Positions 24,001 through 30,000 of a stretch of DNA of 40,019 nucleotides are shown piece by piece. How positions within the stretch are numbered: position 1 is the first letter of the stretch; each line of letters opens with the position of its first letter. This stretch comes from Escherichia phage Evi. The position numbers were made by a program. The stretch is taken from the sequence record LR597642; one strand, given 5' to 3'.

Positions 24001-27000
24001 CAAACGAATACCGCTAGCATACTCAGGCCAAATAAGCTCCCAATCATGGGGTCGTAGCTCCGCCCTACTTACTTGGCCTTCCGTCGCAGATTCGATCATA
24101 AGGGCGCGGGTTGGAGATATAGCTGCTCGTCCGGACGCCATTTGCGATAAGTAAGATGGCGATACACCAAGTCTGGCCGCGAATTTCTTAGCATCACCAA
24201 CCCTCAATGATTTAATAAACTCTTTTAATGTCATACCTTCCTCGGTTTAGTGTTTTCTTGCGAGTTTAGTGTTTAATAAACCATTAAGTCAAGTATTTGC
24301 TTGTTTAGTGATTACTAAAGATAATTACCACATGCAGAAAAAAGAAATTCGCCGTTTACGTCTCAAGGAGTGGTTTAAAGATAAAACTCTGCCACCCAAA
24401 GAGAAGAGCTACCTATCTCAACTAATGAGTGGGAGGGCCTCGTTTGGAGAAAAGGCTGCCAGAAGAATAGAGCAAACATACGGGATGCCGGAAGGGTATC
24501 TGGATGCGGAATACGCAGAACAACCGGAGATTTCTCCACCACATGCAGGGTTAACGTCTAATCAACTGGAATTATTGCAGATTTTTTCAGCCTTCCCTGA
24601 GGATGAGCAACGCCAGATAATCAGCGAGTTAAAGCAGAAAAAAGAATCAATGGAAGATCTCATAGCGAGATGGATTGCGGCGCAAAAATGCCGCCGCGCC
24701 TAAGTTATAAAACCGGAGGAAACATGAATAGAGCCCTTTCACCAATGGTTTCTGAATTTGAAACCATTGAACAAGAAAACAGTTACAACGAATGGCTGCG
24801 TGCGAAAGTAGCAACGAGCCTTGCAGATCCGCGCCCAGCAATTCCCCATGACGAAGTTGAGCGCAGAATGGCAGAACGCTTTGCTAGAATGCGCAAGGAA
24901 CGGAGCAAGCAGTAAAATGTTACCCGTGTTATGGCTTGAAAGCGCAGATACCGACCTAGATGATATAACCAGTTATATTGCTCGTTTCGACATAGATGCG
25001 GCTGAACGCTTATGGCAGCGATTAAGGGGTTGTGTGCTGCCGTTATCCGAACATCCGTATTTATACCCACCAAGCGACAGAGTACCTGGCTTGCGTGAGA
25101 TTGTGGCCCACCCTAACTATATAATTCTATACCGCGTAACAACATCAAGCGTTGAAGTAGTAAACGTGATCCACGCAAGACGCCAGTTTCCCTAACTTTA
25201 ACTACCAATAGAAACATAACAACCGCAACGACTTTACCAAAAGCGTTGTGTTTGTTACGCCCCACGGTTTAGTTTTTGCTTGACTTAAGTTTAATGTTTA
25301 TTAAACTAAAAATACCAACCCACCCCGCCCCACAGAACGCAGGGCAATACTTCGAGTTACCCGGCAGTGGTCAGGGGTTAAGTAGCCAGCCCGAGGCGTA
25401 AGAACATGACGGCAGGGTTCAACTTTAATAACTATGCAGCAGGTTTTTGTTCCGCTACCCCGGCGTGAAGGGGAAACAGAGGGTTTCTCAGTGGGCGAAG
25501 TCAAACATCAGAATGGAAGGCATCCCGGGATCGGCAAAGAAGCGGCAATGGCGCTTTATATTGACATCAGCGCCATTGCCGGACAGGTAAGAGTTATCAG
25601 AGCGGTAACTAAGCGGTATGCGCCTTTACTTCAGAAAGTCTCTGGTGAGTGCACCGAAGATATTGTCAACGATTTCGTCATCGAACTGCGAGGACTCATC
25701 TTCAGTTACAAGGTGACCACAATTTTTGCAGATGGCTCCCGCGAAACTATCAGAGCCCTGCGGCTTAAAGGATGTGTCAAAGACTTCGCCACCACATTCT
25801 GGGCAAGAAAACTTGATTGTATTCATAACCAATTTCCTCTCGAGTAACAGACCCCTCAGAGGATACCACCTCGCCTGACGTGGTTAAAAGCAGGCAACGC
25901 TAACCACAAGGAGCCGACATGCAGAAACGAGAACCCGTCATCATCGCGCCAGACTATACCGATGATGAACTTTATGAGTGGATGCGCCAGAAAATTAATG
26001 CAGCGCAGGATCTGAAATGGGCCAATGAAGCCAGGGCTAAGCAGGCTGAAAATCTGTCCGCTCTGGAGCAGGATATCACCAATCTGGAAAAAGCAGCGGC
26101 ATTAAGCATTGCCAGAATGATTACATACCCACGTTAATAGCTAACCAACGAGGCTAATAATGGAATTTAAAGATTTACCAAAAGAAATCCAGACAATTGC
26201 TGCAACGACTCTCGGTGATAGTCTGGTGAAAATTGACCCGGCATACACCAAAAAAGAAACCATCGATAATATGGTTCGTAATGTGCGCAATGCTTTTTCT
26301 GGGCTATATGGTTCTGATAATCAAAAGCAGGAAAGCGATGTTAATAAACGGGTAATTTCTGTTTGCGTGAATGGCCATGTTCTTTCATCAATCAAAACAG
26401 AAACGGCGACAGTCTTCGATTGCCTTTGCATTGTACAGAGCCTTGTTGATGCTCTGTTTCGTTCAGTGAATTTAGAAAATGATGCAAATCTGCGAGGGCG
26501 CACAATAGCACATCCATATGCACATACTTTAGGCTCTGTGGATATCAAAGATCCCACAAATCTTTAATGAAATAGTTAACGCGAATTGTACTTGCTCTTT
26601 CAGTTGCTTTCAGAATACGCGTTGAAACTGCTGGCGGTAATTTGGTATTCCATTTATTAAAATCATGCCCGGAAAAGTACTCTTCGAAAATACTTTTAAC
26701 TGCAGACTCGCCTATTGAAATGCTGCTTACCATGCGATTTTGATAAAGGCATTTAGCAATAAGAGTTGATTTTAACATTCACCCTCCTGAGGGTTGGTAA
26801 TTAAGGAGTTCTCCACGGGTGAAGTGGAGTGCGTGCGCCGGACACGGGTGAACATCCGGCACTGACAGTTTACTGAAAGGATATTTCTCTGAAAAGTCAG
26901 AGCATAACGCGAAAGCGCACGGCGAGGTTGCTGGTTCATAGATAGCCTGTCGTTAAATTTTCGTCGACCGTGCGCTTCCGGTTGTGGCACTCCGCGAAAT

Positions 27001-30000
27001 GGCGCGGCGGTAAGTATGGCGGGGTTATTCCTTCCCCGTTGAGGACACCGGGTTGTCAGGTTGACCATACGCTTAAGTGACAACCCCGCTACAACGCCCT
27101 CTGTTATCAATTTTCTGGTGGCGTTTGGCGGTATCAGTTTTACTCCGTGACTGCTCTGCCGCCCTTTTTAAAGTGAATTTTGTGATGCGGTGAATGCGGC
27201 TAAGCGCACGCGGAACAGTTAAAACCAAAAACAGTGTTATGGGTGGATTCTCTGTATCCGGCATTAATTGTTAACTGGTTAACGTCACCTGGAGGCACCA
27301 GGCACCGCATCAACAAAGTTCATTTGTAAAAATGGAGGTAATTATGATTGCTCATCACTTCGGAACTGATGAGATTCCTCGTCAGTGCGTGACTCCCGGT
27401 GATTATGTTATTCATAAAGGAAGAACATATATTGCTTCGGTAAACAACATTAAAAAACAACGGCTCTATATTCGTGATTTTTCCACACAACACTGTATTA
27501 AGGAAACCATGATTAAAGTCTTCCTTGGTCGTGATGGTTTACCTGTAAAAGCAGAGTCATGGTGAGCAGTAATAAAATAACTGCCACAATACGACATTCA
27601 GCTTAATGAATACATCAGATTTGATTCTTATATGCCAGCAATGGCAGGGATTTGTTCATCCTTAAATATGTCATGAGGTTAAAACAAAATGAGTAAAGTC
27701 TTTATTTGCGCCGCCATTCCGGACGAACAGGCAATAAAGGAAGAAGGTGCAGTCGCTGTAGCTACTGCCATTGAAGCCGGTGATGAACGTCGCGCCCGCG
27801 CAAAATTTCACTGGCAATTCCTGGAACATTATCCGGCTGCTCAGGACTGCGCTTATAAATTTCTTGTCTGCGAGGATAAACCCGGTATACCCCGCCCTGC
27901 CCTCGATTCCTGGGATGCTGAATATATGCAGGAAAACCGCTGGGATGAGGCGTCTGCTTCCTTTGTCCCGGTTGAGACTGAATCAGATCCGATGAACGTC
28001 ACTTTTGACAAGCTGGCCCCTGAAGTACAGAACGCTGTCATGGTTAAGTTCGACACATGTGAAAACATCACCGTTGATATGGTGATTAGTGCGCAGGAAC
28101 TGTTGCAGGAAGACATGGCAACATTCGACGGACATATCGTTGAAGCGTTGATGAAAATGCCAGAAGTTAACGCCATGTATCCGGAGCTTAAGCTGCATGC
28201 CATCGGGTGGGTTAAGCATAAATGTAAGCCTGGTGCCAAATGGCCCGAAATTCAGGCAGAGATGCGCATCTGGAAAAAACGTCGCGAAGGTGAACGCAAG
28301 GAAACCGGAAAATACATGTCTGTTGTTGATCTCGCCCGCGCCAGAGCCAATCAACAGTACACTGAAAATTCAACAGGAAAACTCAGCCCGGTCATTGCTG
28401 CCATTCATCGCGAATACAAGCAGACATGGAAAACACTGGATGACGAACTGGCCTACGCTCTCTGGCCTGGTGATGTGGATGCCGGAAACATTGACGGCAG
28501 CATCCATCGCTGGGCAAAAAATGAAGTTATCGACAACGACCGCGAAGACTGGAAGCGTATCTCGGCATCAATGCGCAAACAGCCTGATGCCCTTCGCTAC
28601 GACCGCCAGACTATTTTTGGCCTTGTCCGTGAACGTCCGATCGACATTCACAAAGACCCTGTGGCACTGAACAAATACATTACTGAATACCTGACTACAA
28701 AGGGCGTGTTTGAAGATGAAGGAACAAATCAGAGCACAACTGATACTCTCTCGTCGCCAGTACCAGAAACTGATGCAGTGGAAACGGCAATTCCGGACAA
28801 CGAAAAAACCGAATGCAAAGTGGAAATCGAACCATCTGTAGAGCGTGAGGGGCCGTTCTACTTCCTCTTCACCGACAAGGATGGCGAAAAATACGGTCGC
28901 GCAAACAAACTTTCTGGTCTGAATAAGGCGCTGACTGCAGGGGCTACTGAAATCACGAAAGAAGAATATTTTGCCCGCAAAAACGGTACATACTCAGGTT
29001 CACAACAAAATACTGGTGCATCTGACACGACCGCACAACCAGAGCCGGTAAAAGTTACCGCTGAAGAAGTAAACAAAATTATGCAGGCAGCCAATATCAG
29101 CCAGCCTGGCGCCGATAAGTTGCTTGCTGCCTCTCGCGGAGAATTTGTTGCAGGGATTAGCGACCCGAATGATCCGAAATGGGTGAAGGGGATTGAAACC
29201 CGCGACTCTGCAAACCAGAACCAGCAAGAATCGGAACAGAACGACCAGAAAACGGAACAAAACAGCCCAAATGCGCAACAAAACGAGCCAGAAACGAAAC
29301 AGGTTGAACCAGTAGCGCAACAGGAGCCGGAAAAAGTCTGCACCGCCTGCGGTCAGAGCGGTGGCGGCAACTGCCCTGATTGTGGCGCGGTGATGGGCGA
29401 CGCAACATACCAGGAAACATTCGATGAAGAGAATCAGGTTGAAGTTCAGGAAAATGATCCGGAGGAAATGGAAGACGCTGAACATCCACACAAGGAGAAT
29501 GCTGGCAGCGCTCAGGACCACGCCAGCGATAATGAAACTGGCGAGACGGCAGATCCCTTAATTGCGGTGAACGGTCATCACGTTATCACATCCACCAGCA
29601 GAGTGTGGTATCACCTGATGATCGACCTTGAAACAATGGGAACCAACACCAATGCGCCCATCGTGGTTATTGGTGCGGTTTTCTTCGACCCACAAACAGG
29701 GGAAATCGGGCCAGTATTTTATATCGCTATCAGTCTGACTGACGCAATGAATACAGGGGCTGTTCCTAACGGTGGAACCATCGAATGGTGGCTGAAGCAG
29801 TCCAGTGAAGCCAGAGCTGCCATTTTAACAGACCAGGTAAAACTGAAGGACGCCCTTTCGCGGTTTCGGGAGTTCATCAACGAATACTCAGATGAAAAAT
29901 TCGTTCAGGTATGGGGTAATGGTGCAACTTTCGATAACGCAATTTTGCGCACCTCATACGAACGTCTGGACATCCCCTGCCCGTGGCGCTACTACAACGA

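Follow-up and report, generated by a model that had tools for sequence, protein, structure and literature searches.

A DicF sRNA, a KilR-type division inhibitor and a conserved folded RNA in a Qin/Rac mosaic operon of Escherichia phage Evi

The closest described relatives of the locus analyzed here are two division-inhibition loci of Escherichia coli K-12. In the dicBF operon of the Qin prophage (ydfABC-dicF-dicB-ydfD), the small RNA DicF, which occurs in 53-nt and 72-nt forms, is processed by RNase E and RNase III, binds Hfq and represses FtsZ synthesis (PMC9438474, PMC5069750). DicF shares a two-hit logic with DicB, a small MinC-dependent division inhibitor encoded downstream. In the Rac prophage, kilR is preceded at a distance of ~175 nt by the sRNA KilS, which likewise carries an intrinsic terminator. 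The KilR protein interferes with FtsZ and is silenced via NusG-dependent termination (PMC10798246), and both kilR and dicB have been characterized as division inhibitors that raise antibiotic tolerance (PMC3105296).

The window analyzed here comprises 40,019 nucleotides of Escherichia phage Evi (LR597642). An earlier note, made from the sequence alone, had pointed to positions 26570-27565 as a DicF-like sRNA followed by a small ORF unlike DicB. Most probably, this region is where a lambdoid prophage, assembled as a mosaic of Qin-like and Rac-like parts, encodes its division-inhibition functions within the early-left (dicB-type) operon; a probability of roughly 0.88 is assigned to this reading as a whole, including its central claim that the cassette would attack FtsZ twice, with an RNA and with a protein. 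The operon features are as follows.

26160-26567, plus strand: 135-aa ORF; compared with K-12 Qin, this ORF and the next one are inserted between ydfC and the spacer
26545-26778, minus strand: 77-aa ORF with AGGAGG before its ATG; PHROG 10348, unknown function (E 2.7e-46); RefSeq hypothetical protein WP_000920491.1
26779-27111, plus strand: untranslated spacer of 333 nt, the same spacer as the ydfC-dicF precursor region of K-12 Qin
27112-27164, plus strand: DicF sRNA, 53 nt, from Rfam RF00039 and alignment to K-12 dicF
27126-27163, plus strand: DicF intrinsic terminator hairpin, followed by the U tract UUUUU at 27165-27169
27334-27338, plus strand: Shine-Dalgarno sequence GGAGG of kilR, 5 nt before the ATG
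27344-27565, plus strand: kilR, 73 codons and a stop, from NCBIfam NF008465, PHROG 294 and identity to K-12 KilR
27689-30169, plus strand: 826-aa exonuclease, the next gene of the operon, with RecE-like N-terminal and middle parts and an Rv2179c-like 3'-5' exonuclease domain
3' of the exonuclease: a DUF4224 excisionase-like gene and then the integrase (30456-31475), from RefSeq annotation of near-identical loci

The sRNA is a close copy of K-12 DicF. The Rfam RF00039 covariance model matches the plus strand at 27113-27164 over its full length (model positions 1-52 of 52) with 76.4 bits (E 2.7e-15), above the gathering score of 48, and no non-canonical pairs, and the alignment to K-12 DicF shows 52 of 53 identical nucleotides, the sole difference being A10G. 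The proposal of a DicF-like sRNA with its terminator at 27111-27169 is thus borne out to within one base. RNAduplex, which disregards intramolecular structure, pairs Evi DicF with positions -60 to +45 of K-12 ftsZ at -37.7 kcal/mol, compared with -38.5 kcal/mol for K-12 DicF, in the same register. Processing by RNase E and RNase III, Hfq binding and FtsZ repression would be expected of Evi DicF from this near-identity, and a 72-nt form produced by RNase III, as described in K-12 (PMC9438474, PMC5069750), would end at ~27183, within the outer helix of the downstream leader. According to the alignment with K-12 Qin and to annotated near-identical loci, DicF follows ydfC and the long untranslated spacer in what would be a repressor-controlled early-left operon.

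By homology, the 73-aa ORF is KilR, a Rac-type inhibitor of cell division directed at FtsZ. The NCBIfam profile NF008465, "FtsZ inhibitor protein", aligns end to end (positions 1-73 of the profile to residues 1-73) and at 140 bits exceeds its cut-off of 92, PHROG 294, "Kil protein for bacterial septation inhibition", is matched with an E-value of 7.9e-33, and 59 of 73 residues (81%) are identical and 67 of 73 similar to K-12 KilR over the full length with no gaps. The guess of an alternative division inhibitor with a strong ribosome-binding site was therefore well founded, and only the implied novelty is lost: a protein identical over its entire length, WP_000560212.1, is already named "kil" in RefSeq and is encoded at the corresponding place in public genomes, and the DicF-kil arrangement is recurrent. 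The expectation that the Evi protein arrests division through FtsZ, an arrest that excess FtsZ would relieve, is drawn from work on K-12 (PMC10798246, PMC3105296), and 14 of its 73 residues differ from those of the K-12 protein that was studied experimentally. The Evi locus lacks the genes ydaE and racC found after kilR in Rac; Evi kilR could behave differently if KilR needs them, although nothing suggesting such a need was found. As in Rac, kilR lies in the early-left operon, 3' of an sRNA with its terminator and a conserved leader and 5' of recombination or exonuclease genes.

The mosaic junctions, like the identities of the parts, are established by sequence analysis. On the left, positions 26790-27312 of the window track K-12 Qin and positions 27313-27565 track kilR of K-12 Rac; on the right, past the kilR stop, the backbone resumes that elsewhere bears dicB and a DUF1482 gene before the same exonuclease. 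Judged by these junctions, the locus is a mosaic of Qin and Rac, with the kilR ORF in the place of dicB and ydfD. With Qin it shares the spacer, DicF, the terminator and ~150 nt of downstream leader, as well as the position after ydfC and the logic of an anti-ftsZ sRNA followed by a small division-inhibiting protein. Besides lacking dicB and ydfD, it differs from Qin in the insertion of the 135-aa and opposite-strand 77-aa ORFs and in the presence of a RelB/RelE pair and a zinc-binding protein gene in place of ydfA and ydfB. With Rac it shares kilR together with the same leader and ribosome-binding region. The terminator hairpin of Rac KilS is DicF-like (39.1 bits with the Rfam DicF model, E 6e-7, below the gathering score), whereas its 5' seed is unlike that of DicF. 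In Rac, ydaE, racC and recE-recT come after kilR, whereas the Evi kilR is followed directly by a fusion of a RecE N-terminal part with a 3'-5' exonuclease (Pfam PF16473, E 7e-69, residues 642-816; the NCBIfam exodeoxyribonuclease VIII profile matches only partially, with 274 bits against a cut-off of 1269). The wider operon context, comprising immunity genes, ydfC, the exonuclease, the excisionase-like gene and the integrase, agrees with that of annotated near-identical prophages.

Between DicF and kilR lies a structured leader that is conserved before both dicB in Qin and kilR in Rac.

27170-27333, plus strand: structured leader with STnc100-like architecture
27173-27192 with 27303-27323, plus strand: long outer helix of the leader
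27288-27302, plus strand: internal hairpin CCUGG-AGGCA-CCAGG
27234-27329, plus strand: 31-aa ORF, on which RefSeq (PGAP) places the label "DicB, partial" at 27234-27317

The Rfam STnc100 model (RF02076) matches this leader with 34.4 bits, below its gathering score of 47 (E 1.2e-5), and the same sub-threshold match is found in the Rac, AF10, E423 and phiSTEC1589 loci. The leader has in common with the STnc100/PasD family of prophage sRNAs the outer helix, internal hairpins and the motif CACC-NGG-AGGCA-CCN-GGCACC, and a consensus fold with the full STnc100 copy at 15625-15811 contains compensatory changes in 15 of 43 pairs. Given this shared architecture, the compensatory changes and the sub-threshold score, the leader is likely a distant relative of STnc100 rather than a curated member. 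STnc100 itself is a stand-alone sRNA gene, whereas the Evi element is an mRNA leader within an operon.

Upstream of DicF, the earlier note had described about 300 nt of GC-rich, non-coding, precursor-like sequence. The spacer is indeed untranslated and ~96-98% identical to the Qin ydfC-dicF spacer, and no gene is annotated within it in any of the records listed; it is GC-rich, however, only relative to its neighbors (53.8% G+C; the flanking ORFs have 35-40% and the window as a whole 50.6%). At the start of the noted interval, ~210 nt (26570-26778) do not belong to the spacer, as they lie inside the 77-aa minus-strand ORF, for which no Pfam, NCBIfam or PADLOC match was obtained. The fold of 26779-27172 is more stable than that of shuffled sequences (z = -3.7), and the 3' portion of the spacer contains a well-defined RNA domain.

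26779-26980, plus strand: 5' part of the DicF-precursor spacer, predicted to be highly paired, from K-12 Qin homology and the fold z-score
26981-27095, plus strand: conserved 115-nt RNA domain, a four-way junction with a pseudoknot, from covariation among homologues and the minimum free energy fold
26981-26988 with 27088-27095, plus strand: helix P1
26992-26996 with 27003-27007, plus strand: helix H1
27020-27024 with 27034-27038, plus strand: helix H2
27050-27058 with 27078-27086, plus strand: helix H3
27014-27019 with 27065-27070 (the H3 loop), plus strand: pseudoknot

The same four helices are obtained from the minimum free energy fold of the window sequence alone. Across 71 distinct homologues, 94.8% of the cells are paired and both sides have changed in 12 of 33 pairs; these values were reached by none of 500 shuffles, and controls with the structure slid along the alignment were only 33-57% paired. 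A covariance model of the domain, R1, scores 157 bits on Evi. Neither the domain nor the 5' part of the spacer matches any Rfam family at E <= 5. The domain resembles tRNA only in its cloverleaf-like topology, and a tRNA or tmRNA identity was rejected, as ARAGORN detects nothing in 26700-27400 and no match to the Rfam models of tRNA and tmRNA is obtained at E <= 5. Roughly two thirds of complete E. coli genomes carry the domain, K-12 (in Qin) among them, as does phage P1, and a terminator nearly always comes after it. Rac retains only the outer stem as a simple hairpin and lacks the rest of the domain (model R1 finds nothing there). No reported function of the domain was found in the literature, and this conserved folded RNA 5' of DicF appears to be undescribed.

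The nearest counterpart of the domain outside dicBF-type operons is the leader of the ban operon of phages P1 and P7, annotated as a "dicF-like region" in GenBank NC_005856. This leader shares H1-H3 and the pseudoknot at 77-82% identity with compensatory changes; as at the Evi locus, an intrinsic terminator (~15-35 nt past the domain) and then the operon genes follow, and the early promoter is repressor-controlled. In P1, the domain lacks the outer stem P1 and starts ~35-45 nt after the annotated Pban -10 elements, which puts it at, or close to, the start of the transcript; the RNA after it is not DicF, and the downstream genes are tRNAs and ban, with no division inhibitor. The put RNAs of HK022, which are cis-acting processive antiterminators, resemble the domain in position only. 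Both are structured, promoter-proximal elements of an early operon that precede terminators in a lambdoid phage lacking any N-type protein, whereas put is a two-stem RNA of ~70 nt (PMC9378689) and the Evi domain is a four-way junction with a pseudoknot, with no similarity of sequence or structure. Homology to put was rejected on these grounds and on the lack of any R1 match at E <= 10 in the whole HK022 genome; no STnc100-type motif occurs in that genome either.

Taken together with the K-12 literature, on which DicF processing, Hfq dependence, the FtsZ phenotype and repressor control are modeled here, these parts suggest the following course of events. The operon would be silent while the prophage repressor is active. 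Upon derepression, transcription would proceed through ydfC and the 135-aa ORF into the structured spacer; since no convincing sigma-70 promoter was found near DicF in a consensus scan, expression rests on a putative upstream early promoter. RNase E would cleave within the AU-rich stretch at ~27105-27112, and the intrinsic terminator at 27126-27169 would provide the other end of a 53-nt, Hfq-dependent DicF, which would pair with the translation-initiation region of ftsZ and lower FtsZ synthesis. Transcripts that read through the terminator would carry the conserved STnc100-like leader, the ~20-bp outer helix of which is the probable RNase III site giving the 72-nt form, and would then extend to kilR, so that the 73-aa product would block FtsZ function at the protein level.

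Two rival readings concern what the sequence encodes. The possibility that the 73-aa ORF is a divergent DicB-type inhibitor acting via MinC and ZipA is suggested by a PGAP pseudogene, "cell division inhibition protein DicB, incomplete", at window positions 27234-27317 in near-identical genomes. This reading is refuted by the sequence: the ORF matches KilR over its full length and yields no BLASTP alignment to the 62-aa K-12 DicB even at E <= 100. The labeled segment lies in the leader common to Qin and Rac, 5' of the position of the K-12 dicB ATG, and contains none of the 62 K-12 dicB codons; the 31-aa ORF corresponds only to an in-frame upstream extension of the K-12 dicB frame (24 residues, not reproduced here), and a dicB remnant was accordingly rejected. 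Hardly more credible is the idea that the spacer encodes a 112-aa protein on the minus strand (26772-27110) instead of acting as RNA. The frame is open across the spacer and also in K-12 Qin (111 aa), but it starts with TTG, has no Pfam match and is not annotated as a gene in the records listed, and nearly all differences between the window and K-12 alter the amino acid in this frame. Cross-genus substitutions instead preserve the plus-strand helices, and the P1 copy of the element begins on the plus strand, a few bases past the mapped Pban promoter.

The remaining rivals accept the parts and dispute their role. It is improbable that the cassette is a decaying remnant, a recombination accident in a cryptic prophage with DicF and/or kilR unexpressed or non-functional. 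Many DicF loci do reside in defective prophages (PMC5069750), none of 50,697 phage records covers at least 80% of the diagnostic query for the exact DicF-kil arrangement, and a match spanning at least 80% of the 14-kb prophage segment is found in no complete E. coli genome, a sign of heavy mosaicism. Against decay, DicF and its terminator are intact, the kilR ORF is intact with a consensus Shine-Dalgarno sequence and encodes a protein found unchanged in other genomes, and the operon still ends with an intact exonuclease and integrase. Moreover, among 5,426 complete E. coli genomes, at least 60 and up to 134 have DicF followed by kil, and at least 60 unrelated ones, including O121:H19, O145:H28, ECOR29 and ML35, preserve a 391-nt diagnostic segment with 95.9-100% identity. 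A more serious contender, though still the less probable one, is that the same parts have been selected for a benefit to the host, such as transient division arrest under stress, antibiotic tolerance or phage exclusion. Deletions of kilR and dicB make K-12 less able to survive nalidixic acid and azlocillin (PMC3105296), read-through into kilR triggered by OxyS causes a protective growth arrest (PMC10798246), DicB is reported to protect against phage infection (PMC6832061), and the cassette is widespread across E. coli chromosomes. The integrase, excisionase-like and exonuclease genes are still present, however, which makes a role in the phage cycle equally plausible, and a host benefit is compatible with the main reading, from which the sequence does not separate it.

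The division-inhibition reading brings little that is new by itself, as DicF and KilR are both characterized, the protein is named in RefSeq, and the arrangement is already annotated in many E. coli genomes. It presents the sRNA (DicF, KilS or other alleles), the structured leader and the division inhibitor (DicB or KilR) as exchangeable modules, every combination of which retains the two-tier attack on FtsZ, and it marks the RefSeq "DicB, partial" pseudogene calls before kil as artefacts of an over-extended frame. The part that could matter is the 115-nt domain, placed exactly where sRNA termination and read-through into toxic downstream genes diverge. As a tentative proposal, this RNA may be a cis-acting device, so far undescribed, that temperate phages use in their early operons to set the fate of the transcript at the next terminator. 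It may act as an antiterminator or attenuator that needs no protein and fills the role of HK022 put through an unrelated fold, in which case it would set the choice between sRNA-only termination and read-through into kilR or dicB and the exo, xis and int genes (the tRNAs and ban in P1); or it may be a tRNA-like processing platform that places RNase E for the cut at the 5' end of the sRNA. If either version is true, sRNAs of the DicF/KilS type would form the variable 3' module of a conserved, bipartite RNA unit carried by prophages of Escherichia, Citrobacter, Trabulsiella, Erwinia, Izhakiella and Serratia and by P1-like phage-plasmids.

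The locus consists of the small RNA (sRNA) DicF followed by the gene kilR, with an untranslated spacer (26779-27111) on the 5' side of DicF and a leader (27170-27333) between the two genes. Its features and the adjoining open reading frames (ORFs) are as follows:

26160-26567, plus strand, 135-aa ORF (PHROG 1363, unknown function)
26545-26778, minus strand, 77-aa ORF (PHROG 10348, unknown function)
27113-27164, plus strand, DicF, full-length match to Rfam RF00039 (76.4 bits vs a gathering score of 48)
27173-27192 with 27303-27323, outer helix of the leader, about 20 bp, just 5' of the kilR ribosome-binding site
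27234-27317, plus strand, pseudogene named 'DicB, partial' or 'DicB, incomplete' (RefSeq/PGAP), inside the leader
27344-27565, plus strand, kilR ORF of 73 codons, first ORF 3' of DicF to have a ribosome-binding site (GGAGG, 5 nt from the ATG)

Alignment to the K-12 dicF gene places the 53-nt DicF RNA at 27112-27164, with the U tract extending to 27169, and A10G is the sole difference from K-12. The RNA is predicted to pair with the translation-initiation region of ftsZ just as K-12 DicF does (-37.7 vs -38.5 kcal/mol). On every sequence criterion it belongs to the DicF family. No convincing sigma-70 promoter was detected near DicF by a consensus scan, and a dedicated promoter was rejected, as the hits were at chance level (7 found vs 5.4 expected); the promoter/terminator scan also overlooks the DicF terminator, the loop of which exceeds the length allowed. 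The 73-aa ORF is KilR, likewise on every sequence criterion: it is matched along its whole length by NCBIfam NF008465 'FtsZ inhibitor protein' (140 bits vs a cut-off of 92), is assigned to PHROG 294 'Kil protein for bacterial septation inhibition' with E 7.9e-33, aligns without gaps to KilR of the K-12 cryptic prophage Rac at 81% identity, and is 100% identical to RefSeq WP_000560212.1, the protein labelled 'kil' at this position in strains Z1323CEC0019 and EC12. KilR is covered by no Pfam model, and PADLOC gave no match either. The earlier note had described a DicF-like sRNA with its terminator, followed by a 73-aa ORF with a strong ribosome-binding site that did not resemble DicB; both observations are borne out, the latter by a BLASTP comparison with DicB that returned no alignment at E <= 100. 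As stated there, the finding is already known, in the sense that the arrangement recurs, that both genes have been characterised and that RefSeq already has a name for the protein; no description of the DicF-kilR linkage was found in the literature.

The construction of the locus has been read from a four-way alignment of the window, the K-12 cryptic prophages Qin (which carries dicF-dicB-ydfD) and Rac, and a dicB-carrying relative. From ~26790 to ~27312 the window tracks Qin through the spacer, DicF, its terminator and the leader; between ~27313 and the stop codon of kilR it tracks Rac; and immediately past the stop it rejoins the backbone of strain Z1323CEC0009, in which dicB and a DUF1482 gene are followed by the same 826-aa exonuclease. 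In this locus dicB-ydfD is therefore replaced by a cassette, the kilR ORF. Qin and Rac have in common the ~150 nt from the sRNA terminator to the ORF, an obvious substrate for dicB/kilR exchanges. The partial dicB, called in many genomes, was considered as a dicB remnant and rejected: it lies 5' of the true K-12 dicB start and matches only an in-frame upstream extension of the dicB frame, and the call is an annotation artefact of leader sequence.

The frequency of this gene order was estimated with a 391-nt diagnostic query (27030-27420) that reaches from the last part of the spacer through DicF and the leader into the beginning of kilR. At least 80% of the query is covered in 134 of 5,426 complete E. 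coli genomes, and the best 60 of these matches, all annotated 'kil', have 100% coverage and 95.9-100% identity and include O121:H19, O145:H28 RM13514, an O157:H7 strain, ECOR29 and ML35. Part of the 134 are of the type found in E423, with a non-DicF sRNA allele, and the true number of DicF-kil loci therefore lies between 60 and 134. The Qin-type order DicF-dicB and the Rac-type order KilS-kilR are far commoner, and none of 50,697 phage genome records covers 80% of the query. The counterpart of DicF in Rac is, by position, the sRNA KilS (b4833; PMC8175672), located at 5406-5503 on the minus strand of the K-12 Rac comparison locus (L004) and scoring 39.1 bits (E 6e-7), under the gathering score, with the Rfam DicF model. 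KilS has the terminator hairpin and the downstream leader in common with DicF and a different 5' seed. No report relating the two RNAs was found in the literature, and DicF is not mentioned in PMC8175672, in which KilS was named. Among other kil loci, AF10 has a DicF of 60.9 bits, above the gathering score, 5' of kil, and E423 and phage phiSTEC1589 carry further sRNA variants ahead of kil.

The spacer comprises 333 nt with a G+C content of 53.8%, vs 35-40% in the neighbouring ORFs, in agreement with the GC-rich non-coding sequence of about 300 nt noted earlier upstream of DicF, although the first ~210 nt of the interval given in that note are occupied by the minus-strand 77-aa ORF (26545-26778). 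The spacer is itself crossed by a minus-strand ORF of 112 aa that is open in K-12 too. This ORF begins with TTG and has no Pfam match, no gene is annotated there in the listed records, and nearly all differences between the window and K-12 alter an amino acid; a coding function was rejected, and the spacer is read as RNA. The whole spacer is covered to at least 80% in 3,491 of 5,426 complete E. coli genomes and has no Rfam match at E <= 5. In a distant search, ~100 nt of it were also found in P1-like phage-plasmids, and homologues of the corresponding 115-nt domain (26981-27095), gathered from IMG/VR and GTDB genomes with two DNA patterns, come from prophages of Escherichia, Shigella, Citrobacter, Trabulsiella, Erwinia, Izhakiella and Serratia symbiotica and from P1/P7-like elements. 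The alignment of 71 distinct domain sequences (A5) supports a predicted four-way junction with a pseudoknot, composed of the following plus-strand pairings:

26981-26988 with 27088-27095, helix P1
26992-26996 with 27003-27007, helix H1
27020-27024 with 27034-27038, helix H2
27050-27058 with 27078-27086, helix H3
27014-27019 with 27065-27070, pseudoknot

Across this set of related sequences, mostly from E. coli, standard pairs occupy 94.8% of the cells and 12 of the 33 pairs change on both sides; none of 500 shuffles attains any of the observed measures, and sliding the partners by 1-3 columns reduces pairing to 33-57%. Compensatory changes occur in 6 of the 9 pairs of H3. The pseudoknot is 100% paired, and its one switch from U-A to C-G is limited to the P1/P7 group, so that it probably arose only once. 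Invariance in parts of the H3 loop and of the H1-H2 linker is by construction, as the patterns used for collection fix them, and the alignment of H2, a helix of variable length, is imperfect. When the window sequence is folded by itself, the minimum-free-energy structure contains the same four helices. Additional pairings proposed by eye (the UCCU of the H2 loop with a GAGGA linker, and a GGUAAG linker with a CUUAAG loop) were inconsistent across genera in A5 and were discarded. The domain, which in K-12 lies at NC_000913.3 1649251-1649365, has no Rfam family, and an identity as tRNA or tmRNA was rejected, both ARAGORN and Rfam being negative.

R1, a covariance model built for the domain, gives 157 bits for both the window and Qin-type loci and has no match in K-12 Rac, AF10 or phiSTEC1589, nor anywhere in the HK022 genome. 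Loci of the KilS type lack the domain and keep only its outer stem, as a simple hairpin GUUGU-GAAUA-ACAAC. Directly 5' of DicF in the window, the domain also occurs in prophages of six further enterobacterial genera and in the ban-operon leader of P1/P7. An intrinsic terminator almost always comes after it: in at least 69 of 74 distinct downstream contexts, counted with a crude detector that misses long hairpins, a hairpin of <= -8 kcal/mol with a U tract behind it is present within 170 nt (median 74 nt). The RNA between the domain and the terminator is highly variable and may be DicF, a KilS-like seed or another sequence. In Citrobacter braakii, the repressor is followed by the domain, a terminator, the excisionase and the integrase. 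In phage P1 (NC_005856), the match to the domain obtained with BLAST starts at 68739, after the annotated C1-controlled promoters P1ban and P2ban (-10 elements at 68677-68696), and beyond it come a terminator, the genes for tRNA-Asn and tRNA-Thr and, at a greater distance, ban. In GenBank, 68791-68892 bears the label 'dicF-like region', and the P1 annotators had therefore noticed the similarity to the dicF region. No fold or function of the domain was found in the literature read. In prophages of Erwinia (L153, ~4660-4760), Trabulsiella (L150), Serratia (L138) and Izhakiella (L154), the domain is followed by a large terminator hairpin, the loop of which contains the Shine-Dalgarno sequence and ATG of a short ORF (MFYR...) that crosses the 3' half of the stem and the U tract; this looks like a leader-peptide attenuator. 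It is conceivable, if rather unlikely, that the domain acts as a cis-acting antiterminator or attenuator, or as a tRNA-like processing platform, governing events at the sRNA terminator. Homology to put, the cis-acting antiterminator RNAs of HK022, was rejected, as R1 finds nothing in that genome, though the two may be alike in function.

The leader between DicF and kilR (plus strand) is the same as that ahead of dicB in Qin and of kilR in Rac, and gives a sub-threshold match to Rfam STnc100 (34.4 bits vs 47, E 1.2e-5) that recurs in the leaders of Rac, AF10, E423 and phiSTEC1589. A full-length STnc100 sRNA (119.9 bits) is present at 15625-15811 on the minus strand, and both sequences contain the motif CACC-NGG-AGGCA-CCN-GGCACC. 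Six leaders aligned with this copy yield a consensus fold of 43 pairs, with compensatory changes in 15 of the 43. The leader has the architecture of STnc100, yet scores below the family threshold. A put-like antiterminator role for the leader was also considered and rejected, HK022 having neither the CACC-NGGAGGCACCN-GGCACC motif nor any Rfam STnc100-like match. A 72-nt DicF species has been described as an RNase III product of read-through transcripts (PMC9438474, PMC5069750); here, its end would fall at ~27183, inside the outer helix of the leader, and we infer that this helix is the RNase III site.

Elsewhere in the prophage, three minus-strand tRNA genes (16590-16830) are followed, shortly downstream on the same strand, by the full-length STnc100; presumably this is the late-operon leader region. 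A sok antitoxin RNA (19908-20082, minus strand, 113.5 bits) adjoins hokD in the near-identical EC12 locus. The immunity region encodes a RelE/ParE-family toxin (24821-25195, plus strand), preceded by a RelB antitoxin gene in the near-identical EC12 annotation, at the place of ydfA/ydfB in K-12 Qin; after it, in the opposite orientation, comes a gene for an ECs_2282-type zinc-binding protein (25626-25832, minus strand). Relative to K-12 Qin, the 135-aa and 77-aa ORFs, which are convergent and overlapping, form an insertion that separates ydfC from the DicF spacer. Pfam has no match for their products or that of ydfC, and PADLOC none for the 77-aa and 135-aa proteins. Beyond kilR, the 826-aa protein (27689-30169, plus strand) combines RecE-like N-terminal and middle regions, partially matching exodeoxyribonuclease VIII, with a C-terminal Rv2179c-like 3'-5' exonuclease domain that replaces the 5'-3' nuclease domain of RecE; no recT-like gene follows it. 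Prophage matches end at ~31716, just beyond the integrase gene (30456-31475). Coverage of the 14-kb prophage segment 20000-34000 stays below 80% in all 5,426 complete E. coli genomes, 73% being the best value.

The locus most probably works according to the following scheme, for which the present analysis establishes what the parts are and where the junctions lie, whereas the processing steps and phenotypes are carried over from work on K-12 (PMC9438474, PMC5069750, PMC10798246, PMC3105296). The operon would be silent as long as the repressor is active; upon derepression, RNA polymerase would transcribe ydfC, the 135-aa ORF and the spacer, and cleavage by RNase E together with termination at 27126-27169 would free DicF, which with Hfq would lower ftsZ translation. 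RNase III would cut the read-through RNA within the leader helix, and from this RNA KilR would be expressed, which would block FtsZ at the protein level. Rac kilR is held silent by NusG-dependent termination (PMC10798246), and this would fit termination and read-through 5' of the toxic ORF as the control point.
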